DNA from: an uncultured bacterium
GTDB lineage: Bacteria > Patescibacteriota > Saccharimonadia > UBA4664
DNA length: 64,000 nucleotides
NCBI GenBank assembly: GCA_963740635.1
Contig: CAVUEQ010000001.1
Coordinates: 209,026-273,025, forward strand
Reading direction: 5' to 3'
The notes beneath the pieces were generated by a model. It did no database searches. It saw nothing but the letters and a program-made list of their open reading frames with translations, and was not told the DNA's origin. A program made the position numbers and the translations under genes. Shown piece after piece: positions 9,122 through 60,516 of this stretch (its first letter is position 1; each line of letters starts with the position of its first letter).

Positions 9122-9841
9122 TCAGAAGTCGCCGGTGTAGCCGGGCGGGGCACCACCAGTGACCACCTCAACCGGGGCCTGCACCGGCGCGGGGGCCGGG
9201 ACATGCACCACGACGGTGACGGGCGGGGGCTGGTGGCCAGGCCGGTTCACGAAGACCGTCTTCGTGACGGGCTTGGGAGCCGGCTTCTCGACGACGACCG
9301 TCCGCGTGACGGTCGGTGGCTGATGGGCCGGCGGAGTGGTGGTTGGTGTGGGAGCCGGCGGGGTCGTGGTCGGCGGCGGCGGCGGGGTTGTGGCCGGCGG
9401 CTTGGTCGGGCAAGGGGTCTTGCCGCGGTGATCAATCGGTCTCGGGTGTTCCGTCGGCTTCGGGTGCTCGGTCGCCTTGGGGTGCTCACCCTTGTCGCGG
9501 TCGCCCTTGGGGTGGTCGCCGTCCTTGCGGTCCTTGTCGTTGCCCTGGCCGATGACACCCTTGCCGTGGTCGTCCTTGCGGCCGTGGTCGCTGGTCGCTG
9601 TGGCGTGGCCGTCGCGGCCGTTGCCGTGGTTGCCATGGTTGTCCCACGCGCTGGCGCTGCCAGCGAGTGCGAGACTGAGGACGAGGGCGGCGAGCAGGGC
9701 CACCAGTGCGGCGAACGGCCGCACGAAGCGCGCGGCCGGCCTGGCCGGCTGGTGCCGGTGGGCACGGGGAGCGGGGATTTCCGGCTCGGTGGTTTGCTGG
9801 TGGTGGCGGCCCTCGTAGAAGGCCCTGTGCAAGTAGGACAT
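9122..9841 (-). CDS. Secreted His-rich / Pro-Thr-rich repeat protein
   Basis: The ATG at 9841 is preceded by GAAGGGA. A signal-like segment 'FAALVALLAALVLSLALAGSASA|W' is followed by 'DNHGNHGNGRDGH...DHGKG...EHPKATEHPKPTEHPRPIDH' and 'TTPPPPPTTTPPAPTPTTTPP'. The gene lies 6 nt upstream of the sortase-like gene. Confidence 0.6.
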   Translation of the reverse strand: MSYLHRAFYEGRHHQQTTEPEIPAPRAHRHQPARPAARFVRPFAALVALLAALVLSLALAGSASAWDNHGNHGNGRDGHATATSDHGRKDDHGKGVIGQGNDKDRKDGDHPKGDRDKGEHPKATEHPKPTEHPRPIDHRGKTPCPTKPPATTPPPPPTTTPPAPTPTTTPPAHQPPTVTRTVVVEKPAPKPVTKTVFVNRPGHQPPPVTVVVHVPAPAPVQAPVEVVTGGAPPGYTGDF

Positions 9842-10073
9842 GTTGGTCCCTTCTTGGGTTGTTCGCGAATTCCGGCTGGCTGCCGGGCATCCCATTTGGG
9901 AACGCATTTCAGCCTACTGCGCAGGGCAATAAGCTGGGGTGCGTTCCCAAAAATGTGCGATCTGACATGTCAAAGTATCAACTGCACGAGGATTTCCTCT
10001 CCGCACAGCCAATCGCAGATTTTAGCATGCTTTCAAGCATTTTGTCTATGGCATAATTGGCAGGTTCTGTCCA

Positions 10074-11042
10074 CTAAACCGGAACAGTCAGGGACGGGAT
10101 TTTGGACGAGGCAACGATGTCTCTGACCTGCGCGGGCGTGGTAGCTTCCATTAGTTCAGACCGAAGTTCGGCGGCGCCCGGCCAGGAATTAACGTAGATC
10201 TTGAAGAATTTCTTGAGCGTCTGAAACGATTTGCTGCTCCCCCACTGCTCATAGAGGTCGAGGTGGCGCAGGAGGACCGCCAGGCGCCGCTCGGGGTCGT
10301 GGGTGGTTTGGGCCGGGTCGAAAATGAACGGGTCGTGGAAAATGCCGCGGCCGATCATGAGGCCGTCGGCGCCGGTACGGGCGGCCAGCTCCAGGCCCTG
10401 GGCGCGGGATTCGATGTCGCCATTGCCGATGATGAGGGTTTGGGAGCCGGCTTGGTCGCGCAGCTTTGCGACTTTGGTGATTTCGTCCCAGTGCGCCGGA
10501 ACACGGCTCATTTCACGGACTGTGCGGGCATGAATGGTAAGGGCGGCGAGATCCTGGGTGAGCAGGAACCCGGCCCATTCTTTGGTGATGATTTTGCCTA
10601 TGCCAAGCCGGGTTTTCACGCTCACGGGCAGGCCGGGGGCGCCCTGACGCACGGCGGCGATGATGCCGGCTACGCGCTCGTTTTGGCCAATGAGGCCGCC
10701 GCCGCAGCCGCGCGCCACAATCCCCCGCTCCGGGCAGCCGAGGTTGATGTCGATGCCGGCAAAGCCGAGCTGCGCGATATCTTCGGCCGAGCGGCGGAAC
10801 AGCTCTGGGTCGTTGCCCCAGATCTGGGCTACCAGATTGCCGGCGCTGCCCGGCGCGATGCGCAGGCGCTCCAGGGTATGCTCGCGCCCGGCCGATTGCA
10901 GGCCATCGACCGACACGAATTCGGTCATAAACACGTCGGGCGGGGCGATTTCGGCTACGAGTTGCCGAAAAACCACGTTGGTGACGTCATCCATCGGGGC
11001 GAGCACAAAAAACGGCCGCTCAAGCTGTTGCCAAAAGTTCAT
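10074..11042 (-). CDS. dus: tRNA-dihydrouridine synthase
   Basis: 'LAPMDDVTNVVFRQ' and 'GIDINLGCPERGIVARGCGGGLI' match Dus family motifs. TAAAAT ends 6 nt upstream of the ATG. Confidence 0.85.
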   Translation of the reverse strand: MNFWQQLERPFFVLAPMDDVTNVVFRQLVAEIAPPDVFMTEFVSVDGLQSAGREHTLERLRIAPGSAGNLVAQIWGNDPELFRRSAEDIAQLGFAGIDINLGCPERGIVARGCGGGLIGQNERVAGIIAAVRQGAPGLPVSVKTRLGIGKIITKEWAGFLLTQDLAALTIHARTVREMSRVPAHWDEITKVAKLRDQAGSQTLIIGNGDIESRAQGLELAARTGADGLMIGRGIFHDPFIFDPAQTTHDPERRLAVLLRHLDLYEQWGSSKSFQTLKKFFKIYVNSWPGAAELRSELMEATTPAQVRDIVASSKIPSLTVPV

Positions 11043-11066
11043 TTTGGTATTTTAACATGTAACCAG

Positions 11067-11912
11067 CTACCGGATAACCCAGTTGCCGGCGCCGAGGTTG
11101 CGGACCTTGCCGGTGATCTCCATGAGGCTGATGATGTTGGCGAACTGGGCCGCGCTGAACCGGCCCTTTTCAATCAGCTCTTCGCTGGAGGTAGCGCCTT
11201 CCTCGAGCAGTTTGACGATGAGCTTTTCATCGGGGCTTTGCGCCGGGACGGGTACGGCTTCGCGGGCGTTGAAGCCGAGCGCATTGATGACGTCGGCGGA
11301 CGATGTGACGGGCGTGGCGCCGCTGCGCAGGAGATTGTTCGGTCCCGCCGAGAACTCGGAGTAGATGCTGCCGGGCACCGCCATCACCTGCCGGCCGAGG
11401 CCCAAAGCGCGGTGGGCTGTGATGAGCGCACCGCTTTTGGTGGCGGCTTCGGTGACGATGGTAGCGAAACTAAGCGCCGCGATAATGCGGTTGCGCTCCA
11501 CGAAATTTTCTTTGTAGGGGGGAATCCCAACTTCGTATTCGGAAACCAAGGCGCCGCCTTTGGCCAAAATCTCGGCGGCCAGTCCCCGGTGCCGCGGAGG
11601 GTAGATGCGGTCGAGCCCGTGGGCCAGCACTGCTACGGTCTTGCCGCCGGCGTCGAGGGCGGCGCGGTGGGCGATGGAATCAATGCCGATGGCCAGGCCA
11701 CTCACGATGACAGCGCCCGCACGCGACAATTCCTTCGCGATTTGGTAGGTCGCTTTCTCTCCGTAAATGGTGGGCTTGCGCGAGCCAACAATGGCGACGA
11801 GCGAATCTTTGGGCAATTCTCCTAAAACGTTAATGCTTTTGACGGGCGGGCCGGCCTGGCGCAGCTGATCTGGAAACTTACTTGATTTGGAAGAAATCTT
11901 AGAAATTTGCAT
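11067..11912 (-). CDS. dprA: DNA-processing protein DprA (Smf)
   Basis: 'IVGSRKPTIYGEKATYQIAKELSRAGAVIVSGLAIGIDSIAHRAAL...AVLAHGLDRIYP' is the canonical DprA Rossmann core. Confidence 0.9.
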   Translation of the reverse strand: MQISKISSKSSKFPDQLRQAGPPVKSINVLGELPKDSLVAIVGSRKPTIYGEKATYQIAKELSRAGAVIVSGLAIGIDSIAHRAALDAGGKTVAVLAHGLDRIYPPRHRGLAAEILAKGGALVSEYEVGIPPYKENFVERNRIIAALSFATIVTEAATKSGALITAHRALGLGRQVMAVPGSIYSEFSAGPNNLLRSGATPVTSSADVINALGFNAREAVPVPAQSPDEKLIVKLLEEGATSSEELIEKGRFSAAQFANIISLMEITGKVRNLGAGNWVIR

Positions 11913-11920
11913 ATATTTTA

Positions 11921-11949
11921 TTGACAGATTCCGTAAAGTGTGTTAACAT
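11921..11949 (+). promoter_or_regulatory. Sigma-70-type promoter TTGACA-17-TAACAT
   Basis: TTGACA is at 11921-11926 and TAACAT at 11944-11949, with a 17-nt spacer. It points into the 290-bp gap before the methyltransferase gene. Confidence 0.5.
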
Positions 11950-11955
11950 CGTGAT

Positions 11956-12188
11956 CATACCTCTTTGCAGAGGTAAGAACCACACTAACATACCACTAAT
12001 TCGCCTGTAAAAATATCTAAATGCACCCTCCTTTAGGTATTTGCTACAGGCGGATTAGTCCCTTCACACCCGTTACGCTATATGCGTTTCGCACAAAACG
12101 CCCGTGAGGTGAGGTTGAAGGGTGTAATAAAGACCCGACGCTTCGCGGTGACCACCCACCGCGTAGTTGCTCGGGTCTTTATTTGTTT
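11956..12188 (+). ncRNA. Candidate structured RNA of unknown class (independent sRNA or terminating leader)
   Basis: It is bounded by the promoter above and by a terminator: AGACCCGA 12131-12138 / TCGGGTCT 12171-12178, with an inner CGCGGTG/CACCGCG hairpin, then TTTATTTGTTT. Internal hairpins are UACCUCU/AGAGGUA (11958-11975) and a ~19-bp helix at 12002-12052 whose apical loop is UGCACCCUCC. No plausible ORF is present. Confidence 0.4.
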
Positions 12189-12204
12189 AATGTAGGATTG
12201 GATT

Positions 12205-13227
12205 ATGAATTATTTGATGGCGGTATTTCCGGGTCTGAGCGGATTGCTTGGCGAGGAGCTGAGCGGGCGGACTGGCTTGCATGGGCAATTGCTGGGCCGG
12301 GTGCGCGGGAGCGAGCTGGTGAGCGTGGAGGCGCGTGGTGATGCCGGGCTGCTGGAGCTGCGGCTGGCTGAGGATGTTTTTCGGCGGCTCGCGGAGGTCA
12401 AATTGACCGGGAAGCCGGCGGATTTGAAGAATATTGCGGCTGCACTGGGCAAGGCTGCCGGTCTGCCGGCGCGGGTGAAATACCGGGTGGTGGTGCAGGC
12501 CGACGACGCGCGCTGGCGCGGGTACCGGCGCGTGGATATGCAGCGGGCGGCCGAAGCGGGCCTGCTGCGGTCGCATGCCGGCTGGCGATTGTCGGCACAG
12601 GAGGCTCCGGTGGAGATTTGGCTGCACCAGGTGGGATGGACGCTGCACGCGAGCCTGAGGCTGACTACGGCTGAGCACCGCGCGCGGGGTGGCCGTGAGG
12701 TGGAGCGCAGTGCGGCGCTGCGGCCGACGATTGCTGCCGCGATGGTGCAGGCCTCTGAGCCGGCCGAGAATGACGTGTTCCTGGACCCGATGTGCGGCAC
12801 CGGGACGATACTGCTGGAGCGGGCGCTGGCCGGCCGGCATGCGCTGCTGATTGGCGGTGATATTGATCCGGCGGCCGTGCGGGCTACCCAGGAGAATTTT
12901 GGGCCGCGGCACAAGCCGGTCCGCATTGAGCGCATGGACGCGCGGAAATTGCCCCTGGAGGACGGCTCGGTCGATAAATTGGTGACGAATTTGCCTTGGG
13001 GACGCCAAATTGGTGATCCGGCTGGATTGCCGGCGTTGTATGCCGGCGTGTTGGCTGAGGCTGTGCGGGTCGTGCGCCCCGGCGGGCGGGTCGTGCTGCT
13101 CACTGGTGAGCCGGGGGTGCTGGAGAGGGCTTTTAAGGGTAATTCTAACTTGAAGCCGATTCGCGTGGTTGCTGGGATTGAGGTTTTAGGCCGGCCCGCG
13201 AGCATGTTTGTGCTAGAGCGCACATAA
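12205..13227 (+). CDS. THUMP-domain class I SAM-dependent RNA methyltransferase
   Basis: 'LDPMCGTGTILLE' is the SAM-binding motif I and 'VTNLPWGRQIG' is the NPPY-like motif IV. The N-terminal ~150 aa is THUMP-like. AGGA lies upstream of the ATG. Confidence 0.8.
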   Translation: MNYLMAVFPGLSGLLGEELSGRTGLHGQLLGRVRGSELVSVEARGDAGLLELRLAEDVFRRLAEVKLTGKPADLKNIAAALGKAAGLPARVKYRVVVQADDARWRGYRRVDMQRAAEAGLLRSHAGWRLSAQEAPVEIWLHQVGWTLHASLRLTTAEHRARGGREVERSAALRPTIAAAMVQASEPAENDVFLDPMCGTGTILLERALAGRHALLIGGDIDPAAVRATQENFGPRHKPVRIERMDARKLPLEDGSVDKLVTNLPWGRQIGDPAGLPALYAGVLAEAVRVVRPGGRVVLLTGEPGVLERAFKGNSNLKPIRVVAGIEVLGRPASMFVLERT

Positions 13228-13246
13228 GGATATTTAAAGCGGCGGA

Positions 13247-13288
13247 GTTATATGCACTTTGCATATATGCGAAATGCATATAGTTACG
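13247..13288. repeat. AT-rich nested palindrome, copy A
   Basis: The sequence is agTTATATGCAcTTTGCATATATGCGAAATGCATATAGTTac, lying between convergent gene ends (13227 and 13326). It belongs to the same family as 16699-16738 and 59135-59178. Confidence 0.8.
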
Positions 13289-13325
13289 GTCTGTTGCATC
13301 AGCCGGCGGCTGGCATGCACGACAA

Positions 13326-13892
13326 TCAGATGAGTTCGAACGTGGTGTCTTGGGGTGAGGGGTGCGCGAGTTGCTGCAAAACGACGGCTGCGGAGGTAGC
13401 GATGACTTGCGGGAGCTTTGCCTGCTCTTCTTCGTTAAAAGACTTGAGCACGTAAACTTCGCTGGGCTCCACGGAGCGGTCGTTGAGGCTGATGCCGACC
13501 TTTACGCGCATGAATTTATTGCCGATGTGGGCGATTGTGGAATTTACGCCCTGGTGGCCGCTGCCCGAGATGCCATCCGTGCGCAGGCGGAGCCGGCCGA
13601 ACGGTACGTCGACGTCGTCGAATATCACCCAGACGTCGGCCGGGGTGAGTTTGTAGTGCTGCAGGAGGCGCTGAATGGCCTCGCCCGAGAGATTCATCAT
13701 GTTTTGGGGCTTGGCCAGCACGATCTGCTCGCCGTCGAGACTGGCGGTGGCAACATCGGATTTGAGCTTGGGCTCGGGTTTCCAGGTGGCGCTGAGCGAC
13801 GCGGCGAGGCGGTCGGCCACCATGAAGCCGATATTGTGCCGGGTGTGGGCGTAGCGGGCGCCGATATTGCCGAGGCCTACGACCAATTTCAT
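13326..13892 (-). CDS. pth: Peptidyl-tRNA hydrolase
   Basis: 'MKLVVGLGNIGARYAHTRHNIGFMVADRLA' is the canonical Pth N-terminus. The ATG at 13892 overlaps the upstream stop (ATGA), so I do not use the track start at 13934. Confidence 0.9.
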   Translation of the reverse strand: MKLVVGLGNIGARYAHTRHNIGFMVADRLAASLSATWKPEPKLKSDVATASLDGEQIVLAKPQNMMNLSGEAIQRLLQHYKLTPADVWVIFDDVDVPFGRLRLRTDGISGSGHQGVNSTIAHIGNKFMRVKVGISLNDRSVEPSEVYVLKSFNEEEQAKLPQVIATSAAVVLQQLAHPSPQDTTFELI

Positions 13893-23569: not shown

Positions 23570-23646
23570 GGTCCCGTCGTCTAGCGGCCTAGGATGCCTC
23601 CCTCTCACGGAGGAGATCAGGGGTTCGAATCCCCTCGGGACTACCA
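23570..23646 (+). tRNA. tRNA-Glu: tRNA-Glu (anticodon CUC), CCA encoded
   Basis: I folded the cloverleaf by hand. The acceptor is GGTCCCG/CGGGACT. The anticodon stem CCTCC/GGAGG carries the loop CT-CTC-AC. The T arm is AGGGG-TTCGAAT-CCCCT, with discriminator A and CCA. It is highly similar to the E. coli tRNA-Glu backbone. Confidence 0.9.
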
Positions 23647-59367: not shown

Positions 59368-60516
59368 TTAATAAGTAACGCTTTTGCCGATCGGAACGAT
59401 CGAGTACCAGGTGTTACCGGGGTCGAGGGGGACGTCGTTGCCATTGGCGTCGAGGAGCTTAGTGCGGGAGGTGTGTGAATCTTTGGACCAGGTTACCGGC
59501 ACCACGTCGCCGTCGCGCATCACCCAGCCCTGCCCGGTGCCGACGGTTTGCATGATGACGGTGGATTCGCCGATGCGGGTGAAGCCGTAGCTGGTGGGCA
59601 TCATTTCGACCACCACGTTCTTGACGTGGATTTGTTTGCCGGTGTTGCGGTCTATGTGGGGCGCGCCGGACAGGAACCGCGCGTAATCATTGGTGGTGGA
59701 ATCGTATTTGTAATCGACCTGGTAGCCGGCGTAGGAGTAATCAATGTGGATATTGGGGTGCGGCGGGTTGGCGTTGGGGGCGTCGGGTTTGCGCGGGCTG
59801 ACGGTGAAGCTCGAGGGTTTGAAGAAACCGAGGCGCTTCTCGAGGGCGTCGAGCTTGTCTGAGGTGGTGTAGAGGTTGTGCGGGGCGAGGCGGTCGCCGG
59901 TGCGGAAGAAAGCGTCGGCGGCAAAGCTGAGCGCGTTCATGTCTTTCATACCTAGCGGGCTCACCAGGTCCAGGGCGTCGGCGTTGCCGCCCGCGTGGGC
60001 TACCGGCGAGTTGAATTCGAGGGCCCAGTCGATGAAGTAGGTGCGGAGGCTGCGCACGGGGCCGATGCTAGCCGGACGGTTGTCGAGGAAGAACGCTACG
60101 AAGCGGGTAATACCGCCCTCGGCGTTGGCCTCATACACGACGCCGGCGTCGCTGAGGCCGGACTGCGGCCGGGCGTCGGGGTGGTTTTCGATGACTATGC
60201 CGGTGATCGGGCGGGCGGCAAGCTCCGGCGACACCGGCAGGCCGGTGAGCGGCGACAGCCGGGTGGACGGCGTGGGGCTGGGCGTGGGCGAGGCCTTGGG
60301 CGCGGGCGTGCCGGCCAAAGGCGGTTTGGACCTGGACAGCGTCAAGCCCAGCACGCCCGCGGCGACTACCGCCACGACGCCGCCCGCGATCCATAACGCC
60401 AGCTTCCGGTGATCCGCGATCCAGGATGAGCCGGCTGCTAGCGGCTTGGTAAGCGGTTTGGCCGGCGGCTTGGGCGGCTCGGCTACAACCGTCTCGGGCG
60501 TAGGGTCTTCGGTCAT
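59368..60516 (-). CDS. DUF3048 (YerB-like) secreted or anchored protein
   Basis: 'GLSDAGVVYEANAEGGITRFVAFF...IGPVRSLRTYF' is present. An extended -10 TGCTATAAT (60523-60531) ends 6 nt before the ATG, a leaderless layout. Confidence 0.75.
   Translation of the reverse strand: MTEDPTPETVVAEPPKPPAKPLTKPLAAGSSWIADHRKLALWIAGGVVAVVAAGVLGLTLSRSKPPLAGTPAPKASPTPSPTPSTRLSPLTGLPVSPELAARPITGIVIENHPDARPQSGLSDAGVVYEANAEGGITRFVAFFLDNRPASIGPVRSLRTYFIDWALEFNSPVAHAGGNADALDLVSPLGMKDMNALSFAADAFFRTGDRLAPHNLYTTSDKLDALEKRLGFFKPSSFTVSPRKPDAPNANPPHPNIHIDYSYAGYQVDYKYDSTTNDYARFLSGAPHIDRNTGKQIHVKNVVVEMMPTSYGFTRIGESTVIMQTVGTGQGWVMRDGDVVPVTWSKDSHTSRTKLLDANGNDVPLDPGNTWYSIVPIGKSVTY

Follow-up and report, generated by a model that had tools for sequence, protein, structure and literature searches.

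The 6C small RNA of Actinobacteria binds G-rich ribosome-binding sites through its C-rich loops, and it does so without the help of a chaperone (PMC6486639). Conserved small RNAs with a UCCC motif occur in Staphylococcus aureus (PMC2790875). The raiA motif RNA is abundant, single-copy and trans-acting, it is located beside a competence gene, and one of its domains is either a small hairpin or a multi-stem structure (PMC10861870). Here we describe a structured RNA candidate from an uncultured bacterium of the Saccharimonadia (UBA4664), located in a 64,000-nt stretch (the window) that covers positions 209,026 to 273,025 of the 828,923-bp contig CAVUEQ010000001.1. It lies on the plus strand in a gap of 292 bp, flanked by dprA on the minus strand (11067-11912) and by a gene for a UPF0020/THUMP-type methyltransferase on the plus strand (12205-13227). 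Saccharibacteria and other bacteria of the Candidate Phyla Radiation (CPR)/Patescibacteria have genomes of ~0.8 Mb with few recognisable regulators, and we know of essentially no characterised regulatory RNAs in them. An initial annotation of the window had proposed that this gap holds either an independent small RNA (sRNA) or a terminating leader of the methyltransferase gene.

The gene, its strand, its fold, its conservation and its independence from both neighbours are supported in silico, and we hold this part of the result with high confidence. The reading that we favour, with moderate confidence, is that of a single-copy, independently transcribed, structured non-coding RNA gene of ~230 nt (~11955-12186, plus strand), which would act in trans through pairing loops. 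We infer that the gene is transcribed, and the predicted driver is a strong extended -10 promoter of the sigma-70 type (11921-11949, plus strand), with the -35 element TTGACA at 11921-11926, a 17-nt spacer ending in TGT (TG at 11941-11942) and the -10 element TAACAT at 11944-11949. With the TG included, this promoter scores 10/12, and it is the only strong plus-strand promoter-like site that the promoter scan found in 11000-13500. The pattern TTGACA-N17-TGnTAnnAT is found in all homologues that have a 5' flank (23/23). Transcription would start at about 11954-11957.

At the other end of the gene is a putative compound intrinsic terminator (12126-12188, plus strand), whose role is suggested by its form. 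The 13-bp outer stem, AAUAAAGACCCGA/UCGGGUCUUUAUU, is formed by 12126-12138 and 12171-12183, and the 7-bp inner stem, CGCGGUG/CACCGCG, by 12144-12150 and 12157-12163, with ACCACC (12151-12156) as the loop. The conserved top of the structure is GUGACCACCCAC, and GUGACCACCCAY within the terminator top is conserved at a level of ≥90%. The U-rich tail, UGUUU, runs to 12188 and ends 16 nt before the methyltransferase ATG at 12205. All complete homologues end in a stem and a U-run of this kind. A simple terminator scan did not list the compound terminator, because its interior is longer than the 3-8 nt loop limit of that scan.

The minimum free energy (MFE) of a 241-nt stretch that holds the RNA is -100.3 kcal/mol, compared to -57.6 ± 4.6 kcal/mol for 200 dinucleotide shuffles (z = -9.3), and none of the shuffles folds as well. 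A good fold is likewise predicted for the minus strand (z = -8.3). With an unfitted MAFFT alignment as input, RNAalifold gave 58 pairs, 25 of them with compensatory changes. In an alignment of 25 sequences to a covariance model (CM), 91.2% of the cells are paired and double changes are present at 39 of the 69 pairs (152 cells). No shuffle among 500 in a control of this alignment reached any of the measures, and sliding the 3' partners by 1-3 columns brought the pairing down to 34-46%. It should be mentioned that the structure itself guided the CM alignment, which makes RNAalifold the more independent of these two lines of evidence. G-U pairs are frequent in the helices and would be A-C mismatches on the minus strand. 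Based on these pairs and on the conserved plus-strand promoter, the plus strand is taken as the functional strand; a minus-strand RNA was considered and rejected on the G-U pairs and the CM scores.

Four structured domains follow one another on the plus strand. The first, HP1, is a short 5' hairpin in the MFE fold (ACCUCU-UUGC-AGAGGU, 11959-11974), found at the same position in every homologue with a different sequence. Three of the six pairs of this helix 1 have double changes, and it is the least well aligned helix, since just 76% of it is paired. It is followed by a C/A-rich linker, AAGAACCACACUAACAUACC (11975-11994), which is unpaired in both the MFE and the consensus structures and nearly invariant across homologues. 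The second domain, P2 (11995-12059), is a 25-bp interrupted hairpin closed by a 10-nt apical loop, UGCACCCUCC (12022-12031). Helices 2 and 3 of P2 are 92-93% paired, and compensatory changes are seen in 9 of the 10 pairs of the upper stem. The loop sequence GCACCCUCC is invariant, being identical in 25/25 sequences. The P2 loop is thus constrained in sequence while the stem beneath it covaries. The third domain, P3 (12060-12122), has the closing helix CCCUUCA/UGAAGGG and a three-way junction made of P3a (12075-12087), a conserved junction strand, UUUCGCACAAAA (12088-12098, with UCGCACAAAAC as the conserved strand), and P3b (12099-12111). Its helices 4, 6 and 7 are 90-96% paired and have double changes. 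The terminator is the fourth domain; pairing in its helix 8 reaches 98%, with covariation at 11 of the 13 pairs, and 6 of 7 pairs covary in helix 9.

The most divergent member of the family is L112, on an 872-kb contig (L numbers denote the homologous loci). In L112, one hairpin that carries an A-rich loop takes the place of the P3 interior and the terminator-top motif is weakened, and the P2 loop is exact. Pseudoknots between the C-rich loops and the G-rich 3' strand of P3 are unsupported, the partners being invariant in most sequences and the pairing being lost in L088 and L112. The features described in the initial annotation are all in the sequence at the positions that it gave. The TTGACA-17-TAACAT promoter and the compound terminator before the methyltransferase gene were both recovered, the former conserved in homologues and the latter with two covarying stems, and the several clean helices noted between them correspond to domains with covariation support in homologous loci. 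The ~19-bp hairpin placed at 12002-12052 is present as well, as part of the 25-bp interrupted hairpin at 11995-12059.

Homologous loci were taken from the neighbourhoods of methyltransferase and DprA homologues and from one metagenome pattern scan, for GCACCCTCC-N12-40-GATTAGTCCCTT, in which two exact motifs were needed. These sources gave ~27 loci with the same element, three of them pattern hits due to chance, and the element is conserved in at least 25 contigs of Saccharimonadia. The true distribution is wider than the recovered loci, because L112 and L113 would fail the two-motif pattern. The covariance model, built from 22 sequences, has exactly one plus-strand match in each locus, with scores of 128-246 bits. 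In the window the match is at 11950-12186 (246.5 bits), with no second copy in the 64 kb, and the minus-strand matches are partial hairpins of ≤26 bits. At E ≤ 10, the model has no match in 493 kb of unrelated bacterial and archaeal loci or in 54 kb of non-syntenic methyltransferase loci. The 493-kb control consists of 80 loci from a generic scan for the S-adenosylmethionine (SAM)-binding motif, which cover Chloroflexi, Proteobacteria and archaea and exclude Saccharimonadia. Three distant methyltransferase homologues, P0098, P0095 and P0087, are non-syntenic and CM-negative, and they are uninformative on the spread of the RNA. A pattern scan of viral contigs gave two matches, each of them due to chance and CM-negative.

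Identity to the window RNA ranges from 60 to 86%, and 52 alignment columns are invariant. The adjacent proteins have identities of 44-66% (methyltransferase) and 52-78% (DprA); by this measure, the RNA is more conserved than the proteins encoded beside it. As far as sampled, the RNA appears specific to Saccharimonadia (Saccharibacteria/TM7), where it was found across soil members. The nearest relatives of the methyltransferase and DprA proteins are likewise from metagenome-assembled genomes of Candidatus Saccharimonadia/Patescibacteria. The initial annotation had made its proposal depend on conservation and covariation in relatives; the element is conserved and its fold covaries. As a separate observation, contigs L091, L099 and L108, all from JGI sample Ga0318562, break within the element or at its edge, two of them at model position 131 and the third at position 5. 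The breaks are most likely due to assembly fragmentation, with the RNA acting as a repeat shared by co-occurring strains, and they give no evidence of transcript ends.

No known family accounts for the element. With Rfam 15, the RNA was unmatched at the gathering score in the window and in 12 homologous loci, and at E ≤ 10 the region 11800-12300 gave only noise (snoR126, OmrA-B, isrJ and Xist, E 0.5-9.6). ARAGORN detected no tRNA or tmRNA in 11500-12600. The sole Rfam match in the 64-kb window is a tRNA at 23570-23643 (plus strand, 58.2 bits). As the initial annotation had stated, the RNA is therefore not matched to tmRNA, RNase P RNA, SRP RNA, 6S RNA or a riboswitch. The first three were rejected on the lack of a family-model match and of an ARAGORN detection. 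6S RNA was rejected because the 5' end is unpaired to the 3' end and four hairpin domains are present in place of a rod, with no match to RF00013. Known riboswitches were rejected as no Rfam aptamer class matched. The raiA motif RNA was rejected on the absence of an RF03072 match at E ≤ 10, a different helix plan and different neighbours. Members of the C-rich-loop families (6C, RsaE/RoxS) were also considered, and the RNA has no homology to the covariance models of those families. A repeat or phage element was rejected, given that the element is not repeated in the window and the viral matches are CM-negative. In the literature on small or structured RNAs of Saccharibacteria, Patescibacteria and CPR bacteria, we found no description of this RNA. 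A transcriptome preprint on TM7x states that no small RNAs have been validated in that Saccharibacterium (10.1101/2022.03.25.485537). As judged from the sequence searches, the novelty stands, and the element forms a new RNA family within a familiar category, the independent small RNAs of bacteria.

The two flanking genes, which are context outside the RNA, were identified as in the initial annotation: dprA, the divergent neighbour, by PF02481 and TIGR00732 (Pfam, NCBIfam), and the methyltransferase gene (12193-13227 with its -10-like box, plus strand) by PF01170. The regional gene order dus-dprA-RNA-methyltransferase-pth-der is kept across loci. Adjoining the dus gene is an open reading frame (ORF) at 9122-9907 (minus strand) for a low-complexity Pro/Thr/His-rich protein, with TTPPPPPTTTPPAPTPTTTPP-type runs and HPKxxEHPK repeats. 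Further along the window is an IS110-family transposase gene (25474-26445, plus strand; PF01548 and PF02371) with the Shine-Dalgarno (SD) sequence GGAGGAGGGUG located 9 nt before its ATG. This gene is in a stretch of lower GC content, ~24000-28000, where GC is 0.45-0.54 compared to ~0.6 elsewhere. IS110 elements encode a bridge RNA in their non-coding end.

The layout of the window could suggest that the RNA is a terminating leader, a riboswitch or attenuator that controls the SAM-dependent RNA methyltransferase by read-through. The distance of 16 nt between the terminator and the methyltransferase ATG is in accord with this, with the same layout in ~11 homologous loci, and the three-way junction of P3 with its conserved nucleotides is aptamer-like. 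However, the methyltransferase gene does not directly follow the RNA in L081/L082, where three opposite-strand genes come after the RNA and the methyltransferase gene is 2.2 kb away, in L088, where other genes are in between, in L112 and L113, where the RNA is between pth and dprA with no methyltransferase gene nearby, or in L104, L106, L097, L100 and L108. A tblastn survey of the loci found the gene missing downstream in at least eight. Moreover, the methyltransferase gene has a box of its own, TA(G/C)(G/C)AT, 6 nt before the ATG (TAGGAT at 12193-12198 in the window). The box and its spacing are kept in L085, L089, L095 and L101, and the box is kept even in L082, where the RNA is not upstream. 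The methyltransferase mRNA is probably a leaderless transcript from its own promoter. In the window, a TANNNT box is found 4-8 nt before the start codon in 11 of 49 crude gene calls, a 7-fold enrichment over the background of 3.2%, and several boxes are at exactly the 6-nt spacing (12193-12198 before ATG 12205; dus, 10074-11042; 59368-60516). This enrichment suggests that leaderless mRNAs are common in this genome; an SD-like motif is present in 15 of the 49 calls (~30%). Inspection of the alignment found no conserved anti-terminator pairing. The only candidate would join GGGUG in the 3' strand of P3 to CACCC in the terminator top; both are invariant in most sequences, and the pairing is lost in L088 and L112. 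No Rfam riboswitch matched. With the synteny broken and a -10-like box belonging to the methyltransferase gene itself, the leader explanation is rejected, and we give it next to no weight. The other proposal of the initial annotation, an independent sRNA, is supported by a promoter and terminator that are conserved and not tied to the methyltransferase.

The relation to dprA raises another possibility, which we consider quite improbable, that the RNA gene is a cis-antisense or transcription-interference regulator of dprA, with the dprA promoter on the opposite strand inside the RNA gene and the overlapping transcripts controlling competence. On the minus strand the linker reads TGGTATGTT, an extended -10-like box, from which the dprA 5' untranslated region would be complementary to the 5' part of the RNA. 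The dprA ATG is 8 nt from the -35 element of the RNA in the window and 8-10 nt in the window and most loci, no canonical promoter was seen on the minus strand beyond the RNA gene, and the terminator has a bidirectional form. dprA is also adjacent in most loci with enough flank; this adjacency is weak evidence because the gene order of the whole region is conserved. The link is broken in several loci. dprA has decayed to a 38-codon remnant in L085 (2585-2701, minus strand) and to ~76 residues in L097, and at E ≤ 1e-5 tblastn found no dprA upstream in L107 and L110 (>1.2 kb of flank) nor in L111 and L090 (<470 nt of flank). The RNA is intact in all six of these loci, including the linker, with scores of 176-224 bits, which argues against a purely cis-antisense role. 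In addition, the G-U pairs and the covariation indicate selection on the plus-strand fold well past any possible overlap, and there is no complementarity between the P2 loop and the start region of dprA (-4.2 kcal/mol). The dprA and RNA transcription units may overlap to some extent, as judged from the short distance of the dprA ATG and from the minus-strand box. As for the suggestion that there is no RNA gene here, and that the conserved DNA is a protein-binding region, a repeat or a small protein gene, it has hardly any likelihood. A 28-codon ORF (MHPPL...) starts at the AUG of the P2 loop in about half of the homologues, and the good fold of the minus strand would also be compatible with a DNA-level element. 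However, this ORF was rejected as a gene, being absent or frame-shifted in many of 25 homologues; an AUG is missing in L087, L116 and L088, and one and the same stretch of conserved DNA gives RRISPF in some homologues and GGLVPS in others. The compensatory and G-U-containing pairs again point to selection on a plus-strand RNA fold, and the element occurs once in the window.

How the RNA acts can be proposed with less assurance. The strictly conserved single-stranded elements are C-rich, namely the P2 loop and the terminator top, and we tentatively regard base pairing in trans via C-rich loops as the likeliest mechanism. According to this proposal, the RNA would act in trans and not on its neighbours. 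The candidate seeds would be two loops, that of P2 with its CCUCC and the C-rich one of the terminator, and perhaps the C/A-rich linker as well. They could pair with G-rich or SD-type mRNA sites, GGAGGGUG-like sites being the type of partner expected, and the pairing may modulate translation or stability without a chaperone, as in 6C and RsaE/RoxS-type sRNAs. Several observations weigh against this proposal. The complementarity of the P2 loop to GGAGG pointed out in the initial annotation holds as sequence, but no enrichment of targets was found in the window. RNAduplex gave a mean of -8.1 kcal/mol for the P2 loop against 50 start regions of crude gene calls, compared to -7.8 kcal/mol for random windows, and the terminator top and linker against the 50 start regions had no enrichment over random windows either. 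GGAGGGTG occurs 5 times in the 64 kb, with 3.0 expected, and is not over-represented. The single strong match of the P2 loop is the SD of the IS110 transposase (-21.3 kcal/mol), and this match is probably a coincidence. With an SD-like motif in ~30% of the window genes and many genes that look leaderless, such targets would be few. The terminator-top motif is partly paired, which leaves ACCACC as its sole looped portion. The promoter, start site and terminator are themselves read from sequence features. Finally, the 52 invariant positions, the conserved strands of the three-way junction and a promoter close to the consensus are more typical of a protein-binding or housekeeping RNA than of an sRNA that simply base-pairs.

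Those last features lead to the main rival explanation, somewhat unlikely in our estimate, that the RNA is a protein-binding or ribonucleoprotein housekeeping RNA. A protein, the ribosome or RNA polymerase would then bind at the conserved loops, at the A-rich strand of the junction and at the ARN-like C/A-rich linker, in place of mRNA pairing at these sites. The RNA would serve to sequester a factor, or as a scaffold for one, in the manner of CsrB, CrcZ, 6S or raiA-type RNAs. The near-consensus promoter in every homologue suggests high constitutive expression, and the single copy and the target counts of the window fit as well. The linker, AAGAAC-CAAAC-AAAC, resembles A-R-N repeats, and the variation of P3 between a multi-stem domain in most homologues and a simple hairpin in L112 has a parallel in raiA. 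On the other hand, no partner protein can be identified from the data and no gene co-occurs constantly. The P3 junction is dispensable in L112, in which the C-rich P2 loop is retained, and the strictly invariant elements are short single-stranded C-rich runs, typical of pairing seeds. A more speculative alternative, to which we assign a low probability, is a housekeeping RNA specific to the Saccharimonadia lineage, with the invariant P2 loop as a mimic of the 16S rRNA 3' tail. It would act globally, via SD-led mRNAs or as a ribonucleoprotein. Together with the first stem bases, the P2 loop reads CACCCUCCUUU. The standard bacterial anti-Shine-Dalgarno tail is CACCUCCUUU, a general bacterial sequence that may differ in this organism. 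Expressed from a near-consensus promoter, such an RNA could rival the ribosomes for those mRNAs that carry an SD, many other mRNAs of this genome being apparently leaderless, or it could be a ribonucleoprotein bound to a translation or RNA-polymerase factor. If true, ultra-small episymbiotic bacteria would in either case possess a global regulator of a new class, in place of an ordinary target-specific sRNA.

A strongly covarying RNA with 52 invariant nucleotides offers a concrete, testable entry into the RNA-based regulation of this lineage. If the C-rich-loop model is true, G-C seed pairing without a chaperone would be found in CPR bacteria in addition to Actinobacteria and Firmicutes. If the partner is instead a protein or the ribosome, the RNA would be one more of the few structured orphan RNAs, raiA and OLE among them. 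In either case, the covariance model could be used to annotate the gene in Saccharimonadia genomes, where the locus is an unannotated gap.

We have compared the predicted RNA with the known systems that it resembles. With riboswitch and attenuator leaders it shares the window layout of a promoter, a domain with a multi-helix junction, a terminator and a gene start. In contrast to those leaders, the downstream gene here is not constant, several loci have no same-strand gene after the RNA, and no anti-terminator pairing was found. RsaE/RoxS and the UCCC-motif sRNAs of Firmicutes (PMC2790875) also have several exposed C-rich motifs that are complementary to SD sequences, one of them in or near the terminator hairpin, and, like the present RNA, RsaE/RoxS is conserved well past a single genus. 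However, the present RNA has no Rfam match, is much larger and more structured, and is encoded in a window where ~30% of the genes have an SD-like motif. 6C (RF01066) and the present RNA would both be independently transcribed and terminator-ended, both have conserved single-stranded C-rich loops on variable stems, and both come from genomes with a rather high GC content. They are similar neither in sequence nor by CM, and the present RNA is from another phylum, is ~3 times longer, and contains a three-way-junction domain and a C/A-rich linker. The loop motif is also different, being CACCCUCC here and a run of ≥6 C in 6C. The raiA RNA (RF03072) is built of six paired regions with two pseudoknots, and it usually lacks an element of the terminator type (PMC10861870), whereas four tandem domains are found here; it is located between comFC and raiA in Bacillota and Actinomycetota, compared to the dprA/UPF0020 methyltransferase position in Saccharimonadia. 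Apart from these differences, both are orphan, highly structured, single-copy and apparently stand-alone RNAs of ~200 nt with many invariant nucleotides, found beside a competence gene (comFC there and dprA here), and in both of them one domain is either a small hairpin or a multi-stem structure.

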